From IMG/VR virus record IMGVR_UViG_2698536308_000013: 42,478 nt of DNA. One strand, given 5' to 3'. Under the pieces are notes generated by a model. It saw only the letters and a program-made list of their open reading frames with translations. It was not told where the DNA came from and ran no database searches. A program made the position numbers and the translations under genes. The stretch is from a virus. Taxonomy: Duplodnaviria > Heunggongvirae > Uroviricota > Caudoviricetes. Below, piece by piece: positions 29,994-42,478 of this stretch. Positions within the stretch are counted from its first letter, which is position 1, and each line of letters starts with the position of its first letter.

Positions 29994-30740
29994 CTACTTA
30001 ACAACCCTCGAATGGCTAACATTCGGACGCCAGCTCTCCCAGTTAAAATTCACCCAGCGCCCGCCGTTCATGACCATGCGATCCATCACCCGCTCGCCGA
30101 GCAATGTTTTCATCACCTCATAGTTCAGGTTTGTCAGCATCCCCACGCTGCGCATCGACGCTGTCCGGCGATCAACAATCTGGTGCAGCACCACCTGCTC
30201 GTTTTTCGTCTCGCGCTGAATGCCAATTTCATCAAGAACCAGCAGATCCACTTCGCACAGCTCCCGCAAAAATTTTTCGCCTGACTGCCCGTCGTCATAG
30301 CTGGCGTGCAGGGCGCTCATAACATCAGCCACGGTAACCACAATCACTGTCTGACCGTCTTTCAGCAGGCGATTCCCGATAGCTGCCGCTAAGTGATTCT
30401 TCCCGGTACCAGGTTTTCCGCTGAACGCAAAATTTGTACACCCGGTCATCAGTTCATCGGCGATGGATTTCGCCTGGCTTAACGCGTATCGCTGGCCGTC
30501 GTTCTGCACCTGGTAATTCGCAAACGAGCATTTACGGTGCAACGGCTGGATGCCTGAGCGATTCAGAATTTTTTCCACCCGCAACTGGCGATTCAGGCGG
30601 TTGATCTCCTCGCTACGTTTCTGGCCTTCAGCAAGTTGCCACTCGCGCCACTCCGCTACCGTTCTGAATGGGGCGGTTACATGTGGCGGGGTCAGTCGGC
30701 GGATGCGTTCCAGAACGCCGCCTGTCGCAATATTTTTCAT
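29994..30740 (-). CDS. ydaV: DnaC-like helicase loader (YdaV-like), copy 2
   Basis: 248 aa, about 95 percent identical to copy 1 with the same Walker motifs. Confidence 0.85.
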   Translation of the reverse strand: MKNIATGGVLERIRRLTPPHVTAPFRTVAEWREWQLAEGQKRSEEINRLNRQLRVEKILNRSGIQPLHRKCSFANYQVQNDGQRYALSQAKSIADELMTGCTNFAFSGKPGTGKNHLAAAIGNRLLKDGQTVIVVTVADVMSALHASYDDGQSGEKFLRELCEVDLLVLDEIGIQRETKNEQVVLHQIVDRRTASMRSVGMLTNLNYEVMKTLLGERVMDRMVMNGGRWVNFNWESWRPNVSHSRVVK

Positions 30741-30746
30741 GGTCCG

Positions 30747-31423
30747 TTACCCCCTGAAGCCTGGCGGGATCGCACTGTCCGGCAACGAGACGGTGTTAAC
30801 CTGTCGGAGCAACGTCTCAGGCCGAACACCTTTCGGCGCGAACAGGCCCTGGTATTCATTGGCGATGCTGTGTCGAATCACCTGCTCAGGTGAAAAACCC
30901 TGCTGGCGGAATTTTTCCAGCTCCCGTATCGCCCCGTTAGCGCCCTGCTCCGTTCGAATCGGTTTTCGCAATGCCTGTCTGAACCGGACCCACTCATGCC
31001 AGAGTGTTTCCGGCAACCAATCGGGCAGCTCAATAGCCTCCGGCTCGAATTTTTTAGACGCTCGTTTTTGGCGAGGGGGAGATCAGTATTTAGATCTTCC
31101 TCTTCCTCTTCCTCTGGTAACGCTTTTTGATCCGTTTGTGTAACGCTGGCAGCGTTACCTTTTCGTTTCAGTTCGCGTATTTTTGTTACTCGCTCGTTTG
31201 TAACCGCCCGTTTTTTTTAGAGCTTTTTCCGTTATGACGTTCAAAGTTAGGTAGAGAAAGCCCTCCGTCATTTTCGACCAGCCATCCAACCTGAATTAAC
31301 GCATCAGCAAAACCAGACATAAAAGTGATGCGATCTATTGCACTTTTTGTAACGCCGCGAGCGTTACAATCTGCATTACCGTCTATCATTTGTTGATCCG
31401 CCCATGCCCAGAAGCGAATAACC
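30747..31423 (-). pseudogene. O-like replication initiator with a different N-terminal domain, 5' end truncated by the IS, probable frame disruption
   Basis: C-terminal 89 aa match the other O-like copies; upstream part (31186..31423) is in another frame; a T8 homopolymer and a CTCTTC x3 repeat lie in between. Confidence 0.5.
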
Positions 31424-31487
31424 TGAGGTAGCCTGAGTTTAACGGACACTCCTTCCTGAAATAGAATGGCATCAGAAGGAGCTAATA

Positions 31488-31790
31488 ATGAGCAGAAAAA
31501 CCCAACGTTACTCTAAAGAGTTCAAAGCCGAAGCTGTCAGAACGGTTCCTGAAAATCAACTTTCGATCAGTGAAGGCGCTTCCCGATTATCTCTTCCTGA
31601 AGGCACTTTAGGACAATGGGTTACCGCCGCCAGAAAAGGGCTCGGTACTCCTGGTTCCCGCACGGTGGCTGAACTGGAATCTGAAATTCTGCAACTGCGT
31701 AAGGCGTTAAATGAAGCTCGCCTTGAGCGAGATATATTAAAAAAAGCAACAGCGTATTTTGCACAGGAGTCGCTGAAAAATACGCGTTAA
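31488..31790 (+). CDS. IS3-family transposase OrfA (HTH)
   Basis: 100 aa ending ...LERDILKKATAYFAQESLKNTR, typical IS3 OrfA leucine-zipper C-terminus. Confidence 0.85.
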   Translation: MSRKTQRYSKEFKAEAVRTVPENQLSISEGASRLSLPEGTLGQWVTAARKGLGTPGSRTVAELESEILQLRKALNEARLERDILKKATAYFAQESLKNTR

Positions 31791-31825
31791 TCGAACAATG
31801 GCGACAACAATTTCCCATTGAAGCG

Positions 31826-32644
31826 ATGTGTCAGGTATTTGGTGTATCCAGGAGCGGTTATTACAACTGGGTACAGCATGAACCCTCAGACAGAAAACAA
31901 AGTGATGAGCGGCTAAAACTGGAGATTAAGGTGGCACATATCCGCACTCGCGAAACATATGGAACCCGGCGGCTCCAGACGGAGCTGGCAGAGAATGGCA
32001 TCATCGTTGGTCGTGACCGACTGGCACGTCTTCGTAAGGAGCTAAGGCTACGCTGTAAGCAGAAACGCAAGTTCAGAGCGACTACGAACTCGAACCACAA
32101 TCTGCCAGTTGCGCCAAATCTGCTGAACCAGACGTTCGCTCCTACAGCACCAAATCAGGTCTGGGTGGCGGACCTGACGTATGTTGCCACACAGGAGGGA
32201 TGGTTGTACCTCGCTGGCATCAAAGATGTTTATACGTGCGAAATTGTCGGCTACGCCATGGGAGAGCGCATGACAAAAGAGCTGACAGGTAAAGCCCTGT
32301 TTATGGCGCTCAGGAGCCAGCGCCCACCTGCCGGGCTAATCCACCACTCTGATCGAGGTTCACAGTACTGCGCATACGATTACCGGGTCATACAGGAGCA
32401 GTCTGGTCTGAAAACATCAATGTCGCGTAAAGGTAACTGTTACGACAACGCTCCGATGGAAAGCTTCTGGGGAACGCTGAAAAATGAGAGCCTGAGCCAC
32501 TATCGTTTTAATAACCGGGATGAAGCCATCTCAGTAATACGGGAATACATTGAGATTTTCTACAATCGTCAGCGTCGTCACTCTCGTCTGGGGAATATCT
32601 CCCCGGCAGCCTTCAGGGAAAAATATCATCAGATGGCTGCTTAA
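31826..32644 (+). CDS. IS3-family transposase OrfB (DDE catalytic domain); frame opens upstream and is normally fused to OrfA by -1 frameshift
   Basis: Contains …VWVADLTYV… and …HSDRGSQY…, consistent with an IS3-family DDE integrase core. Confidence 0.85.
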   Translation: MCQVFGVSRSGYYNWVQHEPSDRKQSDERLKLEIKVAHIRTRETYGTRRLQTELAENGIIVGRDRLARLRKELRLRCKQKRKFRATTNSNHNLPVAPNLLNQTFAPTAPNQVWVADLTYVATQEGWLYLAGIKDVYTCEIVGYAMGERMTKELTGKALFMALRSQRPPAGLIHHSDRGSQYCAYDYRVIQEQSGLKTSMSRKGNCYDNAPMESFWGTLKNESLSHYRFNNRDEAISVIREYIEIFYNRQRRHSRLGNISPAAFREKYHQMAA

Positions 32645-32688
32645 AAAAAGAACAAATGGTAGTGTCCGCTATTGCCAGTACACCTCAN

Positions 32689-32695
32689 NNNNNNC
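32689..32695. other. Assembly gap, 7 N
   Basis: Run of N immediately after the IS right end. Confidence 1.
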
Positions 32696-33547
32696 CCTGA
32701 AGCCTGGCGGGATCGCACTGTCCGGCAACGAGACGGTGTTAACCTGTCGGAGTAACGTCTCAGGTCGAACACCTTTCGGCGCGAACAAGCCCTGGTATTC
32801 ATTGGCGATGCTGTGTCGAATCACCTGCTCAGGTGAAAAACCCTGCTGGCGGAATTTTTCCAGCTCCCGTATCGCCCCGTTAGCGCCCTGCTCCGTTCGA
32901 ATCGGTTTTCGCAATGCCTGGCGAAATTCAACCCACTCACGCCAAAGCGAGACAGAAATCCAGTTCGGCAAAGCAATATCCAGAGGGTCAAACTTTTTGA
33001 CACCTCGATTCCCCCGGGGGGGATTTAGGGGGGGATCTGTTTTTAGATCTTTATCTGTATCTTTATTAGTTGCCTTTGTGTTGACATCATGTTCAAACAC
33101 CACTTCAACATCTGTTTGAACACCTGTTAAATTTCTCTCTTGTTTTGTTTGAACATCTGCTTCCTTTCTGCTTCTTCTGGCCTGAACAGATGCTTTTCCT
33201 GCGGCTGATTTTTTGGTTAATTTTTCCCTGACTGATGCCAGATCTTCCTCAATCCGAAGATGCACCCATTCCTCGCCGTTATCGCAAAAAAACTCCTGCA
33301 AGGATGGTTCAACATCAGCCCATCGCTCGTTAGTCAGACGGGCAATTTTTGCCAGCCTGTTTTTAGGTATTGGCTTTCCTGTTTGCCAGTAATTGAACAT
33401 CAGCAACAAATACGCACCATGCTCCTCTGCTGACAAATGCATGGTGTCAGCCAGGTAATCAGCTATGTACAGTTGCATGTATGGTAATGCGGCCATAATT
33501 GCCCCGTATGATGCTGCCCGGTGGCTTAGAATAAGCACAAACAGCAT
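32696..33547 (-). CDS. ydaU: O-like replication initiator (YdaU-like, DUF1376-type N-terminus), 3' end abuts the N-gap
   Basis: N-terminus MQLYIADYLADTMHLSAEEHGAYLLLMFNYWQTGKPIP fits the DUF1376 pattern; C-terminal block shared with the other two copies; likely start near 33496. Confidence 0.65.
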
Positions 33548-33559
33548 GGAAACTTTTGC

Positions 33560-33982
33560 TTAATGAACAATGACAGAATCGTCGGAAGACCCGCCGCCGC
33601 TGAAATGCGCTTTCCGGTAAACGGCTTGGACTGCATCATCATGCGCATCAATTGCCGTACTTAACGCTTCCTGCGCCGCCAGTAATGCACGGCGTTCCAG
33701 GGTATCGAAGATGCAGAGTCGGTGACGCAGCTCGCGCGGAAGGATTGCCAGAATTGCTGGGATCAGCTTCTGAATTTTTTCTCTTTGCGTTTTCGTTTCA
33801 CCTTTCAACCAACGGTGATAGATATTCTGCTGATTATTCCAGTCCTTGCCTGGTACCAGGGGCAATTCGCCGCCCCCCTGGCGCAGATATTCTTCAGTAA
33901 TGGCATTGGCTACCCATGCCTGCCCTTTTTCGGCTGCCAGGGCTAACAACACTGACTCGATGTGCTCATGCTTGATTTTCAT
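33560..33982 (-). CDS. ydaT: YdaT-like protein, 140 aa
   Basis: Same size and position as Rac YdaT (downstream of ydaS, upstream of ydaU). Confidence 0.65.
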   Translation of the reverse strand: MKIKHEHIESVLLALAAEKGQAWVANAITEEYLRQGGGELPLVPGKDWNNQQNIYHRWLKGETKTQREKIQKLIPAILAILPRELRHRLCIFDTLERRALLAAQEALSTAIDAHDDAVQAVYRKAHFSGGGSSDDSVIVH

Positions 33983-34233
33983 GAATCAACTCCCATCAGC
34001 TTTTTCGTAGTAGTTTTATTTCTGCCAATAGTTAAAATTACATCAGCAGAAAATAATCCGTTTGATGCATGAGCGATTTTTTCAGCGTAATTTGTTTCGC
34101 CGGTATATTCTGTGCGAGGCAATTTTCCGTTATCCATCCATTTGTAGATTGCTCTTTGGCTGACACCACAAACGTCGGCCACAACAGAAACGCGAACAGT
34201 TTTGATTACATCTTCAAGTGTTTTCTGGTTCAT
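33979..34233 (-). CDS. ydaS: Cro-like HTH protein YdaS-like
   Basis: Start at MNQKTLEDV with SD GAGGG; HTH segment VCGVSQRAIYKWMDNGKLP; divergent from the repressor gene. Confidence 0.6.
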   Translation of the reverse strand: MNQKTLEDVIKTVRVSVVADVCGVSQRAIYKWMDNGKLPRTEYTGETNYAEKIAHASNGLFSADVILTIGRNKTTTKKLMGVDS

Positions 34234-34294
34234 ATCACCCTCACAATGTGAACTTTGAGTACATGCTATAACAGAACTGACAGTACATTCAAGA

Positions 34295-34732
34295 GTGAAT
34301 ATCATTGAACTTATGGTTCATGAAGATAAAGCGCGTAAAGAGTTCGCCAGTAGGCTTGCGCTAGCCTGTGAAAACGCTGGTTATGAACAACATGGAAGGC
34401 AGGCAGAAATTGCCCGTCGAATGAAATTAACACCAAAAGCGGTTAGCAAATGGTTTAATGGCGAAACAATTCCTCGCCGAGAGAAATTAAGGGAATTAGC
34501 AACACTCATTGGAACAACACCAACCTATCTTTTGGGAGAGGATACAGAAGAAAGTGGACAGGTACGTTTCTATCAGGAGTTAAATCCAAGACAAAAAATC
34601 ATCATTGACCTTCTGGACGAGCTCCCTGACAGTGAGACAGATGAACTTTTAAAAACTCTTGAGGAGAAAAAACAGAAGTACAATGCAATTTACGAAGAGC
34701 TAGCACGAAAGAAAAAACAAAAAGCCTCTTAA
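34295..34732 (+). CDS. racR: Prophage repressor (XRE-family HTH; position of Rac RacR)
   Basis: HTH QAEIARRMKLTPKAVSKWFNGE; divergent from the ydaS-like gene across a short intergenic region; start GTG 34295 or ATG 34313. Confidence 0.6.
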   Translation: MNIIELMVHEDKARKEFASRLALACENAGYEQHGRQAEIARRMKLTPKAVSKWFNGETIPRREKLRELATLIGTTPTYLLGEDTEESGQVRFYQELNPRQKIIIDLLDELPDSETDELLKTLEEKKQKYNAIYEELARKKKQKAS

Positions 34733-35022
34733 ACCAGCATAAATCCGGTAGCGTCCCCCTCCGGGTTTGTGCTTCACTTTATCCCATCTCATTTTTTTAC
34801 ACACAAAATGTACTTATAGTACTTTACATCAATGAACACAAAGTACATTATATACCTACCAACCCACCCCGCCCCACAGAACGCAGGGCAATACTTCGAG
34901 TTACCAGGCAGTGGTCAGGGGTTAAGTAGCCAGCCCGAGGCGTATGAACATGACGGCAGGGTTCAGATTTTGCAGTGCAGCAGGTTTCAGTTCCGCCACC
35001 CGGCGTTAAGGGGAGAGATAAG

Positions 35023-35157
35023 ATGGTGCATTACGAAGTAGTTCAGTATTTGATGGATTGTTGCGGTATCACTTACAACCAGGCTGTGCAGGCTTTACGC
35101 AGCAACGACTGGGATCTCTGGCAGGCAGAAGTCGCTATACACAGCAACAAGATGTGA
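35023..35157 (+). CDS. Small Rac early protein (ydaF/ydaG-like), 44 aa
   Basis: MVHYEVVQYLMDCCGITYNQAVQALRSNDWDLWQAEVAIHSNKM with SD GGGGAGAG; I cannot assign ydaF versus ydaG from memory. Confidence 0.55.
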   Translation: MVHYEVVQYLMDCCGITYNQAVQALRSNDWDLWQAEVAIHSNKM

Positions 35158-35167
35158 GATTCGCAAA

Positions 35168-35323
35168 ATGCAAAAAATCGACCTCGGCAACAACGAATCC
35201 CTGGTGTGCGGCGTGTTCCCCAACCAGGATGGAACGTTCACTGCCATGACGTATACCAAAAGCAAAACATTTAAAACCGAAACTGGTGCGCGCCGATGGT
35301 TGGAGAAGCACACAGTAAGCTAA
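35168..35323 (+). CDS. Small Rac early protein (ydaF/ydaG-like), 51 aa
   Basis: MQKIDLGNNESLVCGVFPNQDGTFTAMTYTKSKTFKTETGARRWLEKHTVS; below the ORF-track cutoff, found by manual translation. Confidence 0.55.
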   Translation: MQKIDLGNNESLVCGVFPNQDGTFTAMTYTKSKTFKTETGARRWLEKHTVS

Positions 35324-35808
35324 CGATTAAAACGTCTACTCCTGCTGTTCCAGAATAACTTCATAAAATGGGAGTATTTTTCGGTGACGAGATAATAAGA
35401 ACAGTTTGCGCTATCACTCTGATGTTGAATGATGCCCTTCCGTTCTAATTTTTTCATAACCGGGTTACGGCAAGGAGAAGTGATAATAAGATTTCCTGTT
35501 TTAAGGAAATCTTTAAATACAGCGATTTCTTTCTCAGATAAACGAAGCAATACTCGTTGCTCTGGTAGTAATGAATAATGCTTTTGAATATGTGCTCGCA
35601 ATCTTGAGAAGGAAATGGCGACCACGAAAGAAAAGGCAAAAACGATAATCTGAAAGAGCCAAGGTATTTCAGTATAAGCATTGAATGCGACAGTAAACTC
35701 TTTCGGTATCAGCCAGAGAGTGAGACCAAAAATGATAATCGTATACATAAGTATTTCGAGTGGCTCGTTAGCAAAAAGTTTCAACAATGGAGTAAATACA
35801 TCCAACAT
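35320..35808 (-). CDS. sieB: Superinfection exclusion protein SieB
   Basis: 162 aa from MLDVFTPLLKLFANEPLEILMYTIIIFGLTLWLIP, membrane protein, opposite strand to the early operon as in Rac. Confidence 0.8.
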   Translation of the reverse strand: MLDVFTPLLKLFANEPLEILMYTIIIFGLTLWLIPKEFTVAFNAYTEIPWLFQIIVFAFSFVVAISFSRLRAHIQKHYSLLPEQRVLLRLSEKEIAVFKDFLKTGNLIITSPCRNPVMKKLERKGIIQHQSDSANCSYYLVTEKYSHFMKLFWNSRSRRFNR

Positions 35809-36249
35809 ATCAATAACTCTCAACTGTAAGGGTATTGAAATGTTAACACAAGCTCTCGCTGTAGGGGTATAGCCGAGACCACCGAAGCCCGGAGGTGGTG
35901 AAATAAAACCGGGCACAACACGAAGGCGCATTTCCGATATCCATAAAGAGTCGGTCTTGTCTGTTAAATTTAAATGGTGGGAGTGCGCCTCCGGTTGTAA
36001 ATAACGACATTGCTGTGTGTAGTCCTGGCGGCATCAGTTTTTTTCTTGAAGTTCGGCTGATGTCCGCCCTTTTTAAAGTGAATTTTGTGATGCGGTGAAT
36101 GCGGCTAAGCGCACGTGGCACAGTTAAAAGTCATGTTAGTCCTTATTGGTTTGGGTGGGAAAGCCGACTGTAATTGTTAACTGGTTGCAGTCACCTGGAG
36201 GCACCAGGCACCGCATCAACAAAGTTCATTTGTAAAAATGGAGATAATT

Positions 36250-36471
36250 ATGATTGCACATCACTTCGGAACTGATGAAATACCACGTCAGTGTGTGACT
36301 CCTGGCGATTATGTTCTTCATGAAGGCCGGACATATATTGCCTCGGCAAACAATATTAAAAAGCGAAAACTATATATTCGTAACCTGACCACAAAAACAT
36401 GCATTACTGACCGCATGATTAAAGTCTTCCTCGGTCGTGATGGTTTACCTGTAAAGGCGGAGTCATGGTGA
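36250..36471 (+). CDS. kilR: Cell-division inhibitor KilR
   Basis: 73 aa [49 protein letters not shown]..., recalled as Rac KilR. Confidence 0.85.
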
Positions 36472-36641
36472 TGACTAAGAAAATAAAATGTGCTTACCAC
36501 CTTTGCAAAAAAGACGTTGAAGAAAGCAAAGCTATTGAAAGAATGCTTCACTTCATGCACGGGATTTTATCAAAAGACGAACCGAGAAAATATTGCAGTG
36601 AAGCTTGTGCCGAAAAAGACCAGATGGCACATGAACTTTAA
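36471..36641 (+). CDS. ydaE: Small zinc-binding protein YdaE
   Basis: 56 aa [14 protein letters not shown]...CSEACAEKDQMAHEL; start overlaps the kilR stop (TGATG). Confidence 0.7.
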   Translation: MTKKIKCAYHLCKKDVEESKAIERMLHFMHGILSKDEPRKYCSEACAEKDQMAHEL

Positions 36642-36715
36642 TTAATTGACTATTCGAAACTGAATTTATGCCAGAAATGGCAGGTATTCGCTCAACCTTA
36701 ATTAAGGAGAAAAAC

Positions 36716-36991
36716 ATGATTACCAATTATGAAGCCACTGTTGTAACTACCGATGACATTGTTCACGAGGTGAATCTGGAAGGAAAGCGCATTGGCTACG
36801 TAATTAAAACAGAAAATAAAGAAACCCCATTCACTGTGGTTGATATCGATGGTCCATCAGGCAACGTAAAAACACTTGATGAAGGTGTCAAAAAAATGTG
36901 CCTGGTGCATATCGGAAAGAATCTGCCCGCAGAAAAAAAAGCCGAATTTCTGGCAACTCTAATTGCAATGAAATTAAAAGGTGAAATCTGA
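36716..36991 (+). CDS. racC: RacC
   Basis: 91 aa from MITNYEATVVTTDDIVHEVNLEGKRIGYV with SD AAGGAG; directly upstream of recE. Confidence 0.8.
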   Translation: MITNYEATVVTTDDIVHEVNLEGKRIGYVIKTENKETPFTVVDIDGPSGNVKTLDEGVKKMCLVHIGKNLPAEKKAEFLATLIAMKLKGEI

Positions 36992-37092
36992 AAGAAATAG
37001 CCTGCGTATGGCGCAGGCTATGAACAGTGTGTATCCGGCAAGATCATTCACTGAACAAAACGAATTTTAATCTGAGTTGAGGTTAAAAAACA

Positions 37093-39693
37093 ATGAGCAC
37101 AAAACCACTCTTCCTGTTACGGAAAGCGAAAAAATCATCCGGTGAACCTGACGTCGTCCTGTGGGCAAGCAACGATTTTGAATCGACCTGTGCCACTCTG
37201 GACTACCTGATCGTTAAGTCAGGTAAAAAACTGAGCAGCTATTTTAAAGCTGTTGCCACGAATTTTCCTGTCGTTAATGACCTGCCCGCTGAAGGTGAGA
37301 TCGATTTTACCTGGAGTGAACGCTATCAACTCAGCAAAGACTCCATGACATGGGAACTAAAACCGGGAGCAGCACCAGACAACGCTCACTATCAAGGCAA
37401 TACCAACGTCAACGGCGAAGACATGACTGAGATTGAGGAGAATATGCTACTCCCAATTTCTGGCCAGGAACTGCCCATTCGTTGGCTTGCTCAACACGGC
37501 AGCGAAAAACCGGTAACGCACGTTTCACGCGACGGACTCCAGGCATTACACATTGCTCGGGCTGAAGAACTACCGGCTGTTACTGCCCTGGCTGTTTCCC
37601 ACAAAACCAGCCTGCTCGACCCGCTGGAAATTCGCGAACTCCACAAACTGGTTCGTGACACTGACAAAGTTTTCCCTAATCCTGGTAATTCAAACCTGGG
37701 ACTGATAACTGCTTTTTTCGAAGCATACCTGAACGCTGACTACACCGATCGAGGACTGCTGACAAAAGAGTGGATGAAGGGTAATCGTGTTTCACACATC
37801 ACTCGCACGGCTTCCGGTGCTAATGCTGGCGGCGGAAACCTCACCGATCGCGGCGAAGGTTTCGTACACGATCTGACGTCACTGGCGCGGGACGTAGCCA
37901 CTGGCGTACTGGCCCGTTCAATGGATCTGGACATCTATAACCTTCATCCGGCACACGCTAAACGCATTGAGGAAATTATCGCTGAAAATAAACCGCCCTT
38001 TTCTGTTTTCCGCGACAAATTCATCACCATGCCTGGCGGGCTGGATTATTCCCGCGCCATCGTGGTTGCGTCCGTAAAAGAAGCACCAATTGGGATCGAG
38101 GTCATCCCCGCGCACGTCACTGAATATCTGAACAAAGTACTGACTGAAACCGATCATGCCAACCCTGATCCGGAAATCGTGGATATTGCCTGCGGTCGCT
38201 CCTCTGCCCCGATGCCGCAGCGAGTAACAGAAGAAGGAAAACAGGATGATGAAGAAAAACCGCAACCATCTGGAACAACGGCAGTTGAACAGGGAGAGGC
38301 TGAAACAATGGAACCGGACGCAACTGAACATCATCAGGACACGCAGCCGCTGGATGCTCAGTCACAGGTAAATTCTGTTGATGCGAAATATCAGGAACTG
38401 CGGGCAGAACTCCATGAAGCCCGGAAAAACATTCCATCAAAAAATCCTGTCGATGCCGATAAATTGCTTGCTGCATCACGTGGTGAATTTGTTGACGGAA
38501 TTAGCGACCCGAACGATCCGAAATGGGTAAAGGGGATCCAGACTCGCGATTGTGTGTACCAGAACCAGCCAGAAACGGAAAAAACCAGCCCGGATATGAA
38601 TCAACCTGAGCCAGTAGTGCAACAGGAACCGGAAATAGCCTGCAATGCCTGCGGCCAGACTGGCGGGGATAACTGCCCTGACTGTGGTGCGGTGATGGGC
38701 GACGCAACATACCAGGAAACATTCGATGAAGAGAGTCAGGTTGAAGCTAAGGAAAATGATCCGGAGGAAATGGAAGGCGCTGAACATCCGCACAATGAGA
38801 ATGCTGGCAGCGATCCGCATCGCGATTGCAGTGATGAAACTGGCGAAGTCGCAGATCCCGTAATCGTAGAAGACATAGAGCCAGGTATTTATTACGGAAT
38901 TTCGAATGAGAATTACCACGCGGGTCCCGGTGTCAGTAAGTCTCAGCTCGATGACATTGCTGATACTCCGGCACTGTATTTGTGGCGTAAAAATGCCCCC
39001 GTGGACACCACAAAGACAAAAACGCTCGATTTAGGAACCGCTTTCCACTGCCGGGTACTTGAGCCGGAAGAATTCAGTAACCGCTTTATCGTAGCACCTG
39101 AATTTAACCGCCGGACAAACTCCGGAAAAGAAGAAGAGAAAGCGTTTCTGAGGGAATGCGCAAGCACAGGAAAAACGGTTATCACTGCCGAAGAAGGCCG
39201 GAAAATTGAACTCATGTATCAGAGCGTTATGGCTTTGCCGCTGGGGCAATGGCTTGTTGAAAGCGCCGGACACGCTGAATCATCAATTTACTGGGAAGAT
39301 CCTGAAACAGCAATTTTGTGTCGGTGCCGTCCGGACAAAATTATCCCTGAATTTCACTGGATCATGGACGTGAAAACTACGGCGGATATTCAACGATTCA
39401 AAACCGCTTATTACGACTACCGCTATCACGTTCAGGATGCATTCTACAGTGACGGTTATGAAGCACAGTTTGGAGTGCAGCCAACTTTCGTTTTTCTGGT
39501 TGCCAGCACAACTATTGAATGCGGACGTTATCCGGTTGAAATTTTCATGATGGGCGAAGAAGCAAAACTGGCAGGTCAGCTGGAATATCACCGCAATCTG
39601 CGAACCCTGGCTGACTGCCTCAATACCGATGAATGGCCAGCTATTAAGACGTTATCACTGCCCCGCTGGGCTAAGGAATATGCAAATGACTAA
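37093..39693 (+). CDS. recE: Exodeoxyribonuclease VIII RecE, full length 866 aa
   Basis: Size matches K-12 RecE; acidic linker; C-terminal nuclease domain; translationally coupled to recT (ATGACTAA overlap). Confidence 0.9.
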
Positions 39694-40495
39694 GCAACCA
39701 CCAATCGCAAAAGCCGATCTGCAAAAAACTCAGGGAAACCGTGCACCAGCAGCAATTAAAAATAACGACGTGATTAGTTTTATTAACCAGCCATCAATGA
39801 AAGAGCAACTGGCAGCAGCTCTTCCACGCCATATGACGGCTGAACGTATGATCCGTATCGCCACCACAGAAATTCGTAAAGTTCCGGCGTTAGGAAACTG
39901 TGACACTATGAGTTTTGTCAGTGCAATCGTACAGTGTTCACAGCTCGGACTTGAGCCCGGTAGCGCCCTCGGTCATGCATATTTACTGCCTTTTGGTAAT
40001 AAAAACGAAAAGAGCGGTAAAAAAAACGTTCAGCTAATCATTGGCTATCGCGGCATGATTGATCTGGCTCGCCGTTCAGGTCAAATCGCCAGCCTGTCAG
40101 CCCGTGTTGTCCGTGAAGGTGACGAGTTTAATTTCGAATTTGGCCTTGATGAAAAGTTAATACACCGCCCAGGAGAAAACGAAGATGCCCCTGTTACCCA
40201 CGTCTATGCTGTCGCAAGACTGAAAGACGGAGGTACTCAGTTTGAAGTTATGACGCGCAAACAGATTGAGCTGGTGCGCAGCCAGAGTAAAGCTGGTAAT
40301 AACGGGCCGTGGGTAACTCACTGGGAAGAAATGGCAAAGAAAACGGCTATTCGTCGCCTGTTCAAATATCTGCCCGTATCAATTGAGATCCAGCGTGCAG
40401 TATCAATGGATGAAAAGGAACCACTGACAATCGATCCTGCAGATTCCTCTGTATTAACCGGGGAATACAGTGTAATCGATAATTCAGAGGAATAA
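39686..40495 (+). CDS. recT: Single-strand annealing recombinase RecT, 269 aa
   Basis: Starts [28 protein letters not shown] as recalled for K-12 RecT; overlaps the recE stop. Confidence 0.9.
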
Positions 40496-40550
40496 TTCAG
40501 CCTGGCGGTGTAATGCACCGCCAACTTGAAATATTTTTATGAGAAAAATT

Positions 40551-40700
40551 ATGAGATATGACAATGTTAAACCATGTCCATTTTGTGGTTGTCCATCAGT
40601 AACGGTGAAAGCCATTTCAGGATATTACCGAGCGAAGTGTAACGGATGCGAATCCCGAACCGGTTATGGTGGAAGTGAAAAAGAAGCACTCGAACGATGA
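40551..40700 (+). CDS. ralR: RalR/Lar-like small protein, apparently truncated to 49 aa by an in-frame TGA
   Basis: MRYDNVKPCPFCGCPSVTVKAISGYYRAKCNGCESRTGYGGSEKEALER then TGA; the frame continues NKRTTGNNNGGVHV, which I recall as the K-12 RalR C-terminus after a Trp codon. Confidence 0.55.
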   Translation: MRYDNVKPCPFCGCPSVTVKAISGYYRAKCNGCESRTGYGGSEKEALER

Positions 40701-40725
40701 AATAAACGAACCACTGGAAATAATA

Positions 40726-40926
40726 ATGGAGGTGTTCATGTATAAAATTACCGCCACTATTGAAAAGGAAGGTGGCACTCCTACTAACTGGACAAGATAT
40801 TCAAAATCTAAACTAACGAAATCAGAATGCGAAAAAATGCTCTCAGGTAAAAAAGAAGCAGGCGTTTCCAGAGAGCAGAAAGTAAAACTGATAAATTTTA
40901 ATTGCGAGAAACTTCAGTCCTCGTGA
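40726..40926 (+). CDS. ydaC: YdaC-like small protein
   Basis: MEVFMYKITATIEKEGGTPTNWTRYSKSKLTKSECEKML... between ralR and xis as in Rac. Confidence 0.6.
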   Translation: MEVFMYKITATIEKEGGTPTNWTRYSKSKLTKSECEKMLSGKKEAGVSREQKVKLINFNCEKLQSS

Positions 40927-41025
40927 ATTGCATTGTATTCAAATTAAAACTTCATAGCTGATTATTAATAATCAACATCGGGCGTCAATTTAAGTCTAAC
41001 ATTGGCGCCTGCCAGAGGTGATGCG

Positions 41026-41241
41026 ATGGCACAAGTAATCTTTAATGAAGAGTGGATGGTTGAATACGGCCTGATGCTTCGCACTGGTCTGGGGGCCAGA
41101 CAAATTGAAGCATACCGCCAGAACTGTTGGGTGGAAGGCTTCCACTTCAAACGAGTATCTCCTTTAGGGAAGCCAGACAGTAAGCGAGGGATTATCTGGT
41201 ATAACTATCCAAAGATAAATCAGTTTATCAAAGACTCATGA
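41026..41241 (+). CDS. ydaQ: Excisionase (Rac YdaQ/XisR-like)
   Basis: 71 aa from [23 protein letters not shown]; stop immediately before the integrase start. Confidence 0.7.
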
Positions 41242-41242
41242 T

Positions 41243-42478
41243 ATGTCTAAATTACCAACAGGTGTCGAGATTCGAGGTAAATACATTCGCATCTGGTTCA
41301 TGTTTCGAGGAAAACGATGTCGGGAAACATTGAAAGGCTGGGAGGTTACTAACAGTAACATTAAAAAAGCCGGGAATTTAAGAGCGTTGATAGTTCATGA
41401 AATCAATTCCGGTGAGTTTGAGTATTTAAGACGTTTTCCCCAGTCCAGCACTGGGGCAAAAATGGTGACAACGAGGGTCATAAAAACGTTCGGGGAGCTT
41501 TGTGATATCTGGACAAAAATTAAAGAAACAGAGTTAACAACAAACACAATGAAGAAAACGAAATCACAATTAAAAACACTCAGGATAATAATTTGTGAGA
41601 GTACTCCGATATCGCATATTCGTTATAGCGATATCTTAAACTACCGGAATGAACTGCTGCATGGAGAAACGCTTTACCTGGATAATCCAAGATCCAACAA
41701 AAAAGGAAGAACCGTGCGCACAGTTGATAACTATATCGCCCTGCTCTGTTCGTTGTTACGTTTTGCGTATCAGTCGGGATTTATATCAACCAAACCATTT
41801 GAAGGAGTAAAGAAATTACAGAGAAACAGAATAAAGCCTGACCCGTTATCTAAAACAGAATTCAATGCATTAATGGAAAGTGAAAAAGGACAGAGCCAGA
41901 ACTTGTGGAAATTTGCCGTATACTCCGGGCTTCGTCACGGGGAACTGGCTGCTCTGGCGTGGGAGGATGTGGATTTCGAGAAGGGAGTTGTGAATGTCAG
42001 AAGAAACCTGACGATACTGGATATGTTCGGTCCCCCAAAAACAAATGCGGGGATCCGGACGGTAACACTACTGCAGCCTGCTCTTGAAGCACTGAAGGAG
42101 CAATACAAACTGACCGGGCATCATCGCAAAAGCGAAATCACTTTTTATCATCGGGAGTACGGCAGAACCGAAAAGCAAAAACTGCATTTTGTTTTCATGC
42201 CCAGAGTGTGTAACGGAAAACAGAAACCTTATTACTCGGTAAGCAGTTTGGGTGCGAGATGGAATGCAGCAGTAAAACGTGCTGGTATTCGCCGCCGTAA
42301 TCCGTACCATACGCGGCATACTTTTGCCTGCTGGCTGTTGACGGCAGGAGCGAACCCGGCGTTTATAGCCAGCCAGATGGGGCATGAAACTGCGCAGATG
42401 GTGTATGAAATTTACGGTATGTGGATTGATGACATGAACGACGAACAGGTAGCCATGTTGAATGCGCGGTTATCGTAG
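41243..42478 (+). CDS. intR: Tyrosine-type site-specific integrase (Rac IntR-like), 411 aa
   Basis: C-terminal catalytic region with HTRHTFACWLL...GHETAQMVYEIYGMW (H-x-x-R and Tyr nucleophile pattern); last gene of the early operon; stop at window end. Confidence 0.9.
   Translation: MSKLPTGVEIRGKYIRIWFMFRGKRCRETLKGWEVTNSNIKKAGNLRALIVHEINSGEFEYLRRFPQSSTGAKMVTTRVIKTFGELCDIWTKIKETELTTNTMKKTKSQLKTLRIIICESTPISHIRYSDILNYRNELLHGETLYLDNPRSNKKGRTVRTVDNYIALLCSLLRFAYQSGFISTKPFEGVKKLQRNRIKPDPLSKTEFNALMESEKGQSQNLWKFAVYSGLRHGELAALAWEDVDFEKGVVNVRRNLTILDMFGPPKTNAGIRTVTLLQPALEALKEQYKLTGHHRKSEITFYHREYGRTEKQKLHFVFMPRVCNGKQKPYYSVSSLGARWNAAVKRAGIRRRNPYHTRHTFACWLLTAGANPAFIASQMGHETAQMVYEIYGMWIDDMNDEQVAMLNARLS

Follow-up and report, generated by a model that had tools for sequence, protein, structure and literature searches.

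Lar-family proteins (PF14354/TIGR03655) are restriction-alleviation proteins: type I restriction is alleviated and modification enhanced. The known system closest to the locus studied here is the RalR/RalA system of the E. coli K-12 Rac prophage, in which RalR is a toxin with non-specific DNase activity that is neutralised by RalA in an Hfq-dependent manner (Guo et al. 2014, PMC4041452). Changes at residues 14, 37, 39, 49, 51 and 52 lower RalR toxicity, and purified K52Q RalR does not cleave DNA (PMC4041452). [quoted passage not shown]

We analysed a 42,478-nt stretch of DNA from a virus of the Caudoviricetes (the window). At its right end it carries the integrase-proximal arm of a Rac-type lambdoid prophage. 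The features discussed below are the following, with positions counted from the first letter of the window and the basis of each call in brackets.

37093-39693: recE (gene order at the right end)
39686-40495: recT (gene order at the right end)
40496-40530, plus strand: hairpin in the recT-ralR spacer, core stem GGCGGTG/CACCGCC (RNA fold)
40551-40700, plus strand: truncated ralR (lar) coding sequence, 49 codons and TGA (translation; RefSeq CDS WP_001443846.1 in O55:H7 CB9615, same coordinates)
40673-40688, plus strand: 16-nt RalA-pairing repeat in ralR (AAGTGAAAAAGAAGCA), intact (exact string; role by experiment in PMC4041452)
40695, plus strand: linked derived synonymous change in Arg49, AGA to CGA (AGA in K-12 and five divergent alleles)
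40698-40700, plus strand: premature TGA in place of Trp50 (TGG), derived base A at 40700 (K-12 alignment, divergent alleles, homologues)
40701-40745, plus strand: orphaned in-frame ralR codons 51-64 (NKRTTGNNNGGVHV) and TAA, identical to K-12 (translation, alignment)
40738-40926, plus strand: rcbA/ydaC (DUF1187), 62 aa, antisense to RalA (RefSeq CDS in CB9615, ORF list, alignments)
40744-40922, minus strand: RalA antitoxin sRNA, full length (Rfam RF02694, 225.1 bits, E = 5e-55, model positions 1-179 of 179)
40845-40860, minus strand: 16-nt repeat in RalA, complementary to the ralR mRNA (14/16 positions, 11 contiguous)
41026-41241: xisR, downstream of rcbA/RalA
41243-42478: intR, after xisR

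The window shares with K-12 both the locus and the gene order recE-recT-ralR-rcbA/RalA-xisR-intR. RalR residues 1-49 are 100% identical between the two, the neighbours are the same, and RalA is full length with both 16-nt repeats intact. Orthology with the RalR/RalA system is carried by the identity of residues 1-49, by the recT-ralR-rcbA context and by the NCBIfam RalR equivalog NF007260, which the 49-aa product matches at 126.9 bits over profile positions 1-49 of 64. The difference lies in the length of the toxin, which is 49 aa in the window and 64 aa in K-12, so that N51 and K52, important for toxicity and DNase activity (PMC4041452), are absent.

Translation of the ralR frame (40551-40745, plus strand) gives MRYDNVKPCPFCGCPSVTVKAISGYYRAKCNGCESRTGYGGSEKEALER, a stop, NKRTTGNNNGGVHV and a second stop. 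The original prediction, made from the letters of the window, was that ralR carries an in-frame TGA at a codon that is Trp in K-12, yielding a truncated 49-aa product, and that the residues after the stop are the C-terminus of K-12 RalR. Alignment with the K-12 gene bears this out: ralR in the K-12 derivative CJ236 is a 195-nt CDS encoding 64 aa (WP_001317028.1), with TGG at codon 50 followed by NKRTTGNNNGGVHV, and it reads past codon 50, where the window has TGA at 40698-40700. The predicted 49-aa product agrees with the RefSeq annotation WP_001443846.1. The altered base had been placed at 40699; the alignment puts it at 40700, one position further on.

Over 40480-40960 (481 nt) the alignment shows that the window differs from K-12 at four positions only: (i) the leader T-run at 40534-40538 is shorter by one T; (ii) A to C at 40695 changes the Arg49 codon from AGA to CGA, a synonymous change; (iii) G to A at 40700 converts Trp50 to a stop; and (iv) rcbA ends with TGA in the window at 40924, where K-12 has AGA. 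The predicted single G-to-A change is therefore right as to the substitution, but it is not isolated, since it is fully linked to the derived change at 40695.

A one-base difference from the K-12 reference might in principle be a sequencing or assembly error, with G as the true base at 40700. Apart from the difference itself, nothing specific points to an error, and we can give the idea practically no credence. A query specific to the allele (81 nt, 40660-40740) is matched exactly by 308 of 1,763 ralR-bearing complete E. coli genomes (~17%), produced by many laboratories on many platforms. Carriers of this haplotype include O157:H7, O55:H7, O111:H8 and others, from human, bovine and chicken isolates. 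Over the whole 481-nt segment, O157:H7, O55:H7 and further complete genomes show 100% identity, and three ~38-kb phage records (vB_EcoS-666R9, -673R7 and -613R10) contain the identical segment too. The exact 49-aa protein occurs on at least 1,000 contigs, and the change at 40700 is linked to two further haplotype-specific differences. A sequencing error is refuted at the population level.

The TGA allele is already present in public databases under the RalR name. Since the truncated protein still clears the NF007260 equivalog cutoff of 113 bits, RefSeq/PGAP names WP_001443846.1 (49 aa) a 'type I toxin-antitoxin system endodeoxyribonuclease toxin RalR' and does not flag it as a pseudogene. Our literature search found no paper on a truncated ralR allele.

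We asked what the last 15 codons contribute to the protein. Against the 64-aa RalR, Pfam PF14354 aligns to residues 5-54 (model positions 2-58 of 58) at 53.5 bits; against the 49-aa product it scores 39 bits (model positions 2-52 of 58; threshold 28.6 bits), and TIGR03655 scores 40.3 bits (model positions 1-49 of 55; threshold 39.6 bits). Both Lar models reach residue 54 of RalR. The 49-aa product retains all four cysteines of the zinc ribbon that is common to the family (CPFC...CxxC; C9, C12, C30 and C33), whereas the near-invariant C-terminal W-N-x-R motif, at residues 50-53, lies past the stop and is absent.

A Lar family profile search of 1.84 billion representative proteins returned 3,968 members at E <= 0.001, and we counted motif conservation in 201 aligned Lar domains taken from the best 145 of these, which are diverse representatives. 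W50 is present in 192/192, N51 in 187/191 and R53 in 168/185 of the aligned domains, figures that are somewhat inflated by the W-N-x-R contained in the search profile itself. The four zinc-binding cysteines are present in 191-194 of the 201 domains, so that the conservation of W50-N51-x-R53 is on par with theirs. Beyond position 54 the alignment is mostly gaps.

An AlphaFold2 model of P0033, a 92%-identical full-length homologue, was of moderate confidence (mean pLDDT 70) and comprises strands at 17-22, 25-30 and 36-39 followed by the sole helix, at 43-58, which the stop is predicted to cut roughly in half. A PDB sequence search returned spurious chitin-binding-protein matches only. Foldseek with the P0033 model gave no significant PDB match, the nearest structures being Elf1/ELOF1 zinc ribbons with a TM of about 0.6. 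The predicted fold, a small zinc ribbon with one helix, bears no resemblance to a known nuclease fold, which is of note in view of the published DNase activity.

From the domain models, the motif counts, the helix and the published mutagenesis, we conclude that the lost segment comprises the end of the domain, which is conserved and sensitive to mutation in experiments, together with a variable tail. The 49-residue product would thus keep the four-cysteine zinc ribbon and lose W50-N51-x-R53 and half of its only helix, and with these gone it most likely has neither DNase nor toxin activity. Two points stand against a complete loss of function: the product retains an intact zinc ribbon and still passes the score thresholds of the RalR, Lar and Pfam models, and readthrough of the UGA could still yield some authentic full-length RalR.

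We next consider the origin and spread of the allele. Codons 49-50 are AGA-TGG in K-12 and in five divergent alleles of E. coli, whose identity over the 81-nt query is 94-96%, and Trp50 is kept in full-length homologues from records named E. albertii, E. marmotae, Salmonella and Citrobacter. It follows that C at 40695 and A at 40700 are both derived states, the TGA having come from TGG. Synthetic queries for the two intermediate haplotypes, CGA-TGG and AGA-TGA, found no exact match in 5,426 complete genomes, and on the K-12-like backbone the two changes are completely linked. Nothing beyond hitch-hiking accounts for the linkage of the synonymous AGA to CGA change, which is a small unexplained detail.

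Two draft assemblies, L008 and L009, encode a 49-aa variant (P0003), and both are mosaics. L009 is of the PV0838 type at all diagnostic sites except 40695 and 40700, so its window-type patch spans <=47 bp. L008 has a PV0838-type backbone with a window-type patch from 40700 to 40947 (about 250-300 bp) and its left junction between 40695 and 40700. We considered whether its AGA-TGA could be the ancestral intermediate and rejected this, as a recombination junction between the two sites fits better. Judged by their diagnostic sites, the mosaics show an allele that apparently moves by short-patch recombination and that appears to have entered another Rac-like backbone at least twice. They do not demonstrate selection for the TGA allele: both assemblies were picked up through a search for 49-aa proteins, which is an ascertainment bias, and neither recombinant haplotype is found among the 5,426 complete genomes.

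E. coli E2865 (NZ_AP018808.1) has two Rac-like ralR copies, at 1870249-1870329 and 2524531-2524611. One is the TGA haplotype and the other is PV0838-type with TGG, and such co-residence is the kind of substrate that would allow conversions like those in L008 and L009.

The course of events that we infer is that TGG changed to TGA once, on a K-12-like Rac backbone, accompanied by the synonymous change at 40695, 5 nt before it, and by the loss of one nucleotide from the 5' leader. The allele would then have spread by three routes: descent, movement of Rac-like prophages, and short-patch recombination where such prophages reside in one genome. Of the explanations that the original prediction had offered for the stop (an inactivating mutation, a sequencing error or a recoding site), the evidence selects the first; the 308 genomes and three phage records speak against the second, and the derived state of the TGA and the lack of a SECIS-like fold against the third. 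We regard it as probable, and hold with good confidence, that the window carries a natural, heritable Trp50-stop allele of ralR that arose once, spread along these routes and encodes a loss-of-function toxin beside a retained antitoxin.

An allele this frequent, copied into other backbones and present in some genomes together with a TGG copy, might instead encode a 49-aa zinc-ribbon protein that keeps or has gained a function independent of the C-terminus, for example restriction alleviation or interference with a co-resident full-length RalR. Also in its favour, the four cysteines and the beta-sheet core are intact and the family thresholds exceeded. We nevertheless consider such a function improbable. 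The conservation of W50, N51 and R53 matches that of the zinc ligands, which argues that Lar function needs them, and point changes at residues 49, 51 and 52 already cut toxicity (PMC4041452). The frequency, in turn, is dominated by clonal lineages such as O157:H7, and the recombinants carry the ascertainment bias described above.

A second way in which function could persist is that the stop is leaky. In this case Trp-tRNA-Trp would read the UGA and restore the ancestral Trp, giving a strongly attenuated rather than null toxin that is still under RalA control. Engelberg-Kulka (1981) reportedly found that normal tRNA-Trp suppresses UGA more readily when the next base is an A. The base after the ralR UGA in the window is A (context GAA CGA UGA A). 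K-12 has an RF2 variant that renders it leakier than most E. coli. Of the stop codons in this species, UGA leaks most, and Trp-tRNA-Trp reads it (PMC10570021). A K-12 reporter gave a readthrough, set by the competition between Trp-tRNA-Trp and RF2, of about 2% at 37 C and of 4% at 25 C (PMC10570021), a figure that need not hold in this context or host.

The 14 codons downstream of the stop are intact and the same as in K-12, and RalA and its pairing site are retained, which speaks for this reading. However, the orphaned remainder of ralR overlaps the ribosome-binding site and start of rcbA, and its last two bases overlap the RalA 3' end. For this reason the conservation of 40701-40745 is silent on whether it is translated, all the more so as the haplotype is young. 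No readthrough-promoting structure was found 3' of the stop (-3.7 kcal/mol, z = +0.5), and no other lineage has a stop at codon 50. We therefore think a biologically leaky stop unlikely, with a chance of roughly the same small order as that of a retained function. Slightly less likely still is a dose-attenuated toxin, in which a small percentage of ribosomes would make the 64-aa RalR in a manner dependent on growth state and temperature and gated by RalA, and in which the CGA codon could tune termination.

The codon being UGA, programmed recoding also deserves mention, either as selenocysteine insertion or as a +1 frameshift of the prfB type that would lead into the frame of rcbA. An open reading frame in +1 extends from 40666 to 40926, through rcbA, and a +1 shift would fuse RalR(1-49) to RcbA. 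Here too the evidence runs the other way. There is no SECIS: apart from RalA, 39500-42478 has no Rfam match at E <= 1, and the 53 nt from the UGA onward lack a stable fold (-3.7 kcal/mol, z = +0.54). By inspection of the sequence, a P-site CGA cannot re-pair in the +1 frame (GAU), and there is neither a slippery codon nor a Shine-Dalgarno-like element upstream. The in-frame stop is not conserved among homologues either; the TGA is recent, derived and confined to one haplotype, while all other alleles and species have TGG or Trp. Programmed recoding is effectively refuted, and we would assign it next to no probability.

We return to the preferred reading, an inactivated toxin, and to the antitoxin that it leaves behind. 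RalA lies adjacent to ralR in the opposite orientation, and its Rfam score is well above the RF02694 gathering score of 170. The complementarity between the ralR and RalA 16-nt repeats (14/16 positions with 11 contiguous) is as described for K-12 (PMC4041452), and the RalA repeat falls at RalA positions 63-78, consistent with the 5' end mapped in that work. The toxin would thus be dead with RalA and both repeats left intact, that is, an intact antitoxin RNA next to a probably dead toxin. The conservation of RalA may also reflect constraint on rcbA, to which RalA is antisense. Duplex and cofold energies of RalA with ralR for the four codon-49/50 haplotypes were at most ~4 kcal/mol apart and were dominated by artefactual long-range pairing, and we discarded them.

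In K-12, the stop of the full-length ralR overlaps the rcbA start (ATGTATAA). RcbA is 62 aa in the window and 69 aa in K-12: the gene ends at TGA in the window and in all five divergent alleles, and the K-12 AGA reads on to 69 aa. The K-12 protein is therefore the derived, stop-loss form. Relative to the 5' end of RalA (40922, minus strand), position 40924 is 2 nt upstream, and from its placement the difference there could affect RalA initiation.

Two database proteins, P0040 and P0043 (67 and 96 aa), are fusions of RalR with DUF1187 (PF14354 and PF06688), and their junctions fit deletions between the 16-nt ralR repeat and similar short repeats in rcbA. On the plus strand, 40673-40688 and 40845-40860 are direct repeats. 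Deletions of this kind, as the junctions suggest them, would also take out the RalA pairing region.

The state of the locus resembles that of decayed type I toxin loci in E. coli K-12 such as the hok-like ones, in which the toxin gene is disabled by mutation and the RNA partner remains. Unlike the hok-like loci, where IS insertions and rearrangements are responsible, ralR in the window is probably disabled by a single nonsense codon in a soluble zinc-ribbon toxin, and its annotation still presents the gene as functional. This is most likely an ordinary case of prophage toxin decay, and its main value is for annotation and interpretation. Although the toxin is probably dead in O157:H7, O55:H7 and over 300 complete genomes, surveys of toxin-antitoxin systems will count a functional RalR/RalA there, and results obtained with K-12 RalR (fosfomycin tolerance, restriction alleviation) should not be transferred untested to carrier strains. 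It also offers a neat natural case of alleles passing in short patches (<=47 bp) between co-resident prophages that encode RecET.

The original prediction also noted a GGCGGTG...CACCGCC stem-loop just upstream of ralR, and RNA folding finds it real and stable. In the core stem, 40503-40511 are paired to 40515-40523, and 40496-40500 and 40526-40530 form an outer stem; the fold has an energy of -18.8 kcal/mol (z = -4.7), which not one of 200 shuffled sequences reached. A consensus scan did not call the hairpin an intrinsic terminator, because the T-run begins about 11 nt past the stem. The stem is invariant in 8 alleles, including two that have a different RecT-family recombinase gene upstream and another loop and flanks. 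As guesses, it may mark the mRNA end or stabilise the message after recT, or it may act as a weak attenuator before ralR.

The T-run at 40534-40538, 12-13 nt upstream of the ralR ATG, is the site of the third haplotype-specific change. The recT-ralR spacer is one base shorter in the window than in PV0838-type alleles. We also considered whether the mutation had made a promoter (ATGAAA-16-AATAAT, 40697-40724, 9/12) and rejected it, as it is weak and the start it implies lies inside the rcbA Shine-Dalgarno.

On a larger scale, positions 30000-42478 (12.5 kb) of the window have no end-to-end match among complete E. coli genomes; the best matches cover 86-89% at 98.8-99.5% identity, some of them broken by IS3 or IS600 elements. 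In strain 08_3323, IS600 lies between recT and ralR. Over the last 25 kb of the window, related phage records have a coverage of 68% at 97% identity. The record PP818812.1, named 'Actinobacillus phage vB_Apl-pPE4', contains at 320-783 a ralR/recET region that is about 90% identical to E. coli Rac-like prophages, and its Actinobacillus pleuropneumoniae host label looks odd.
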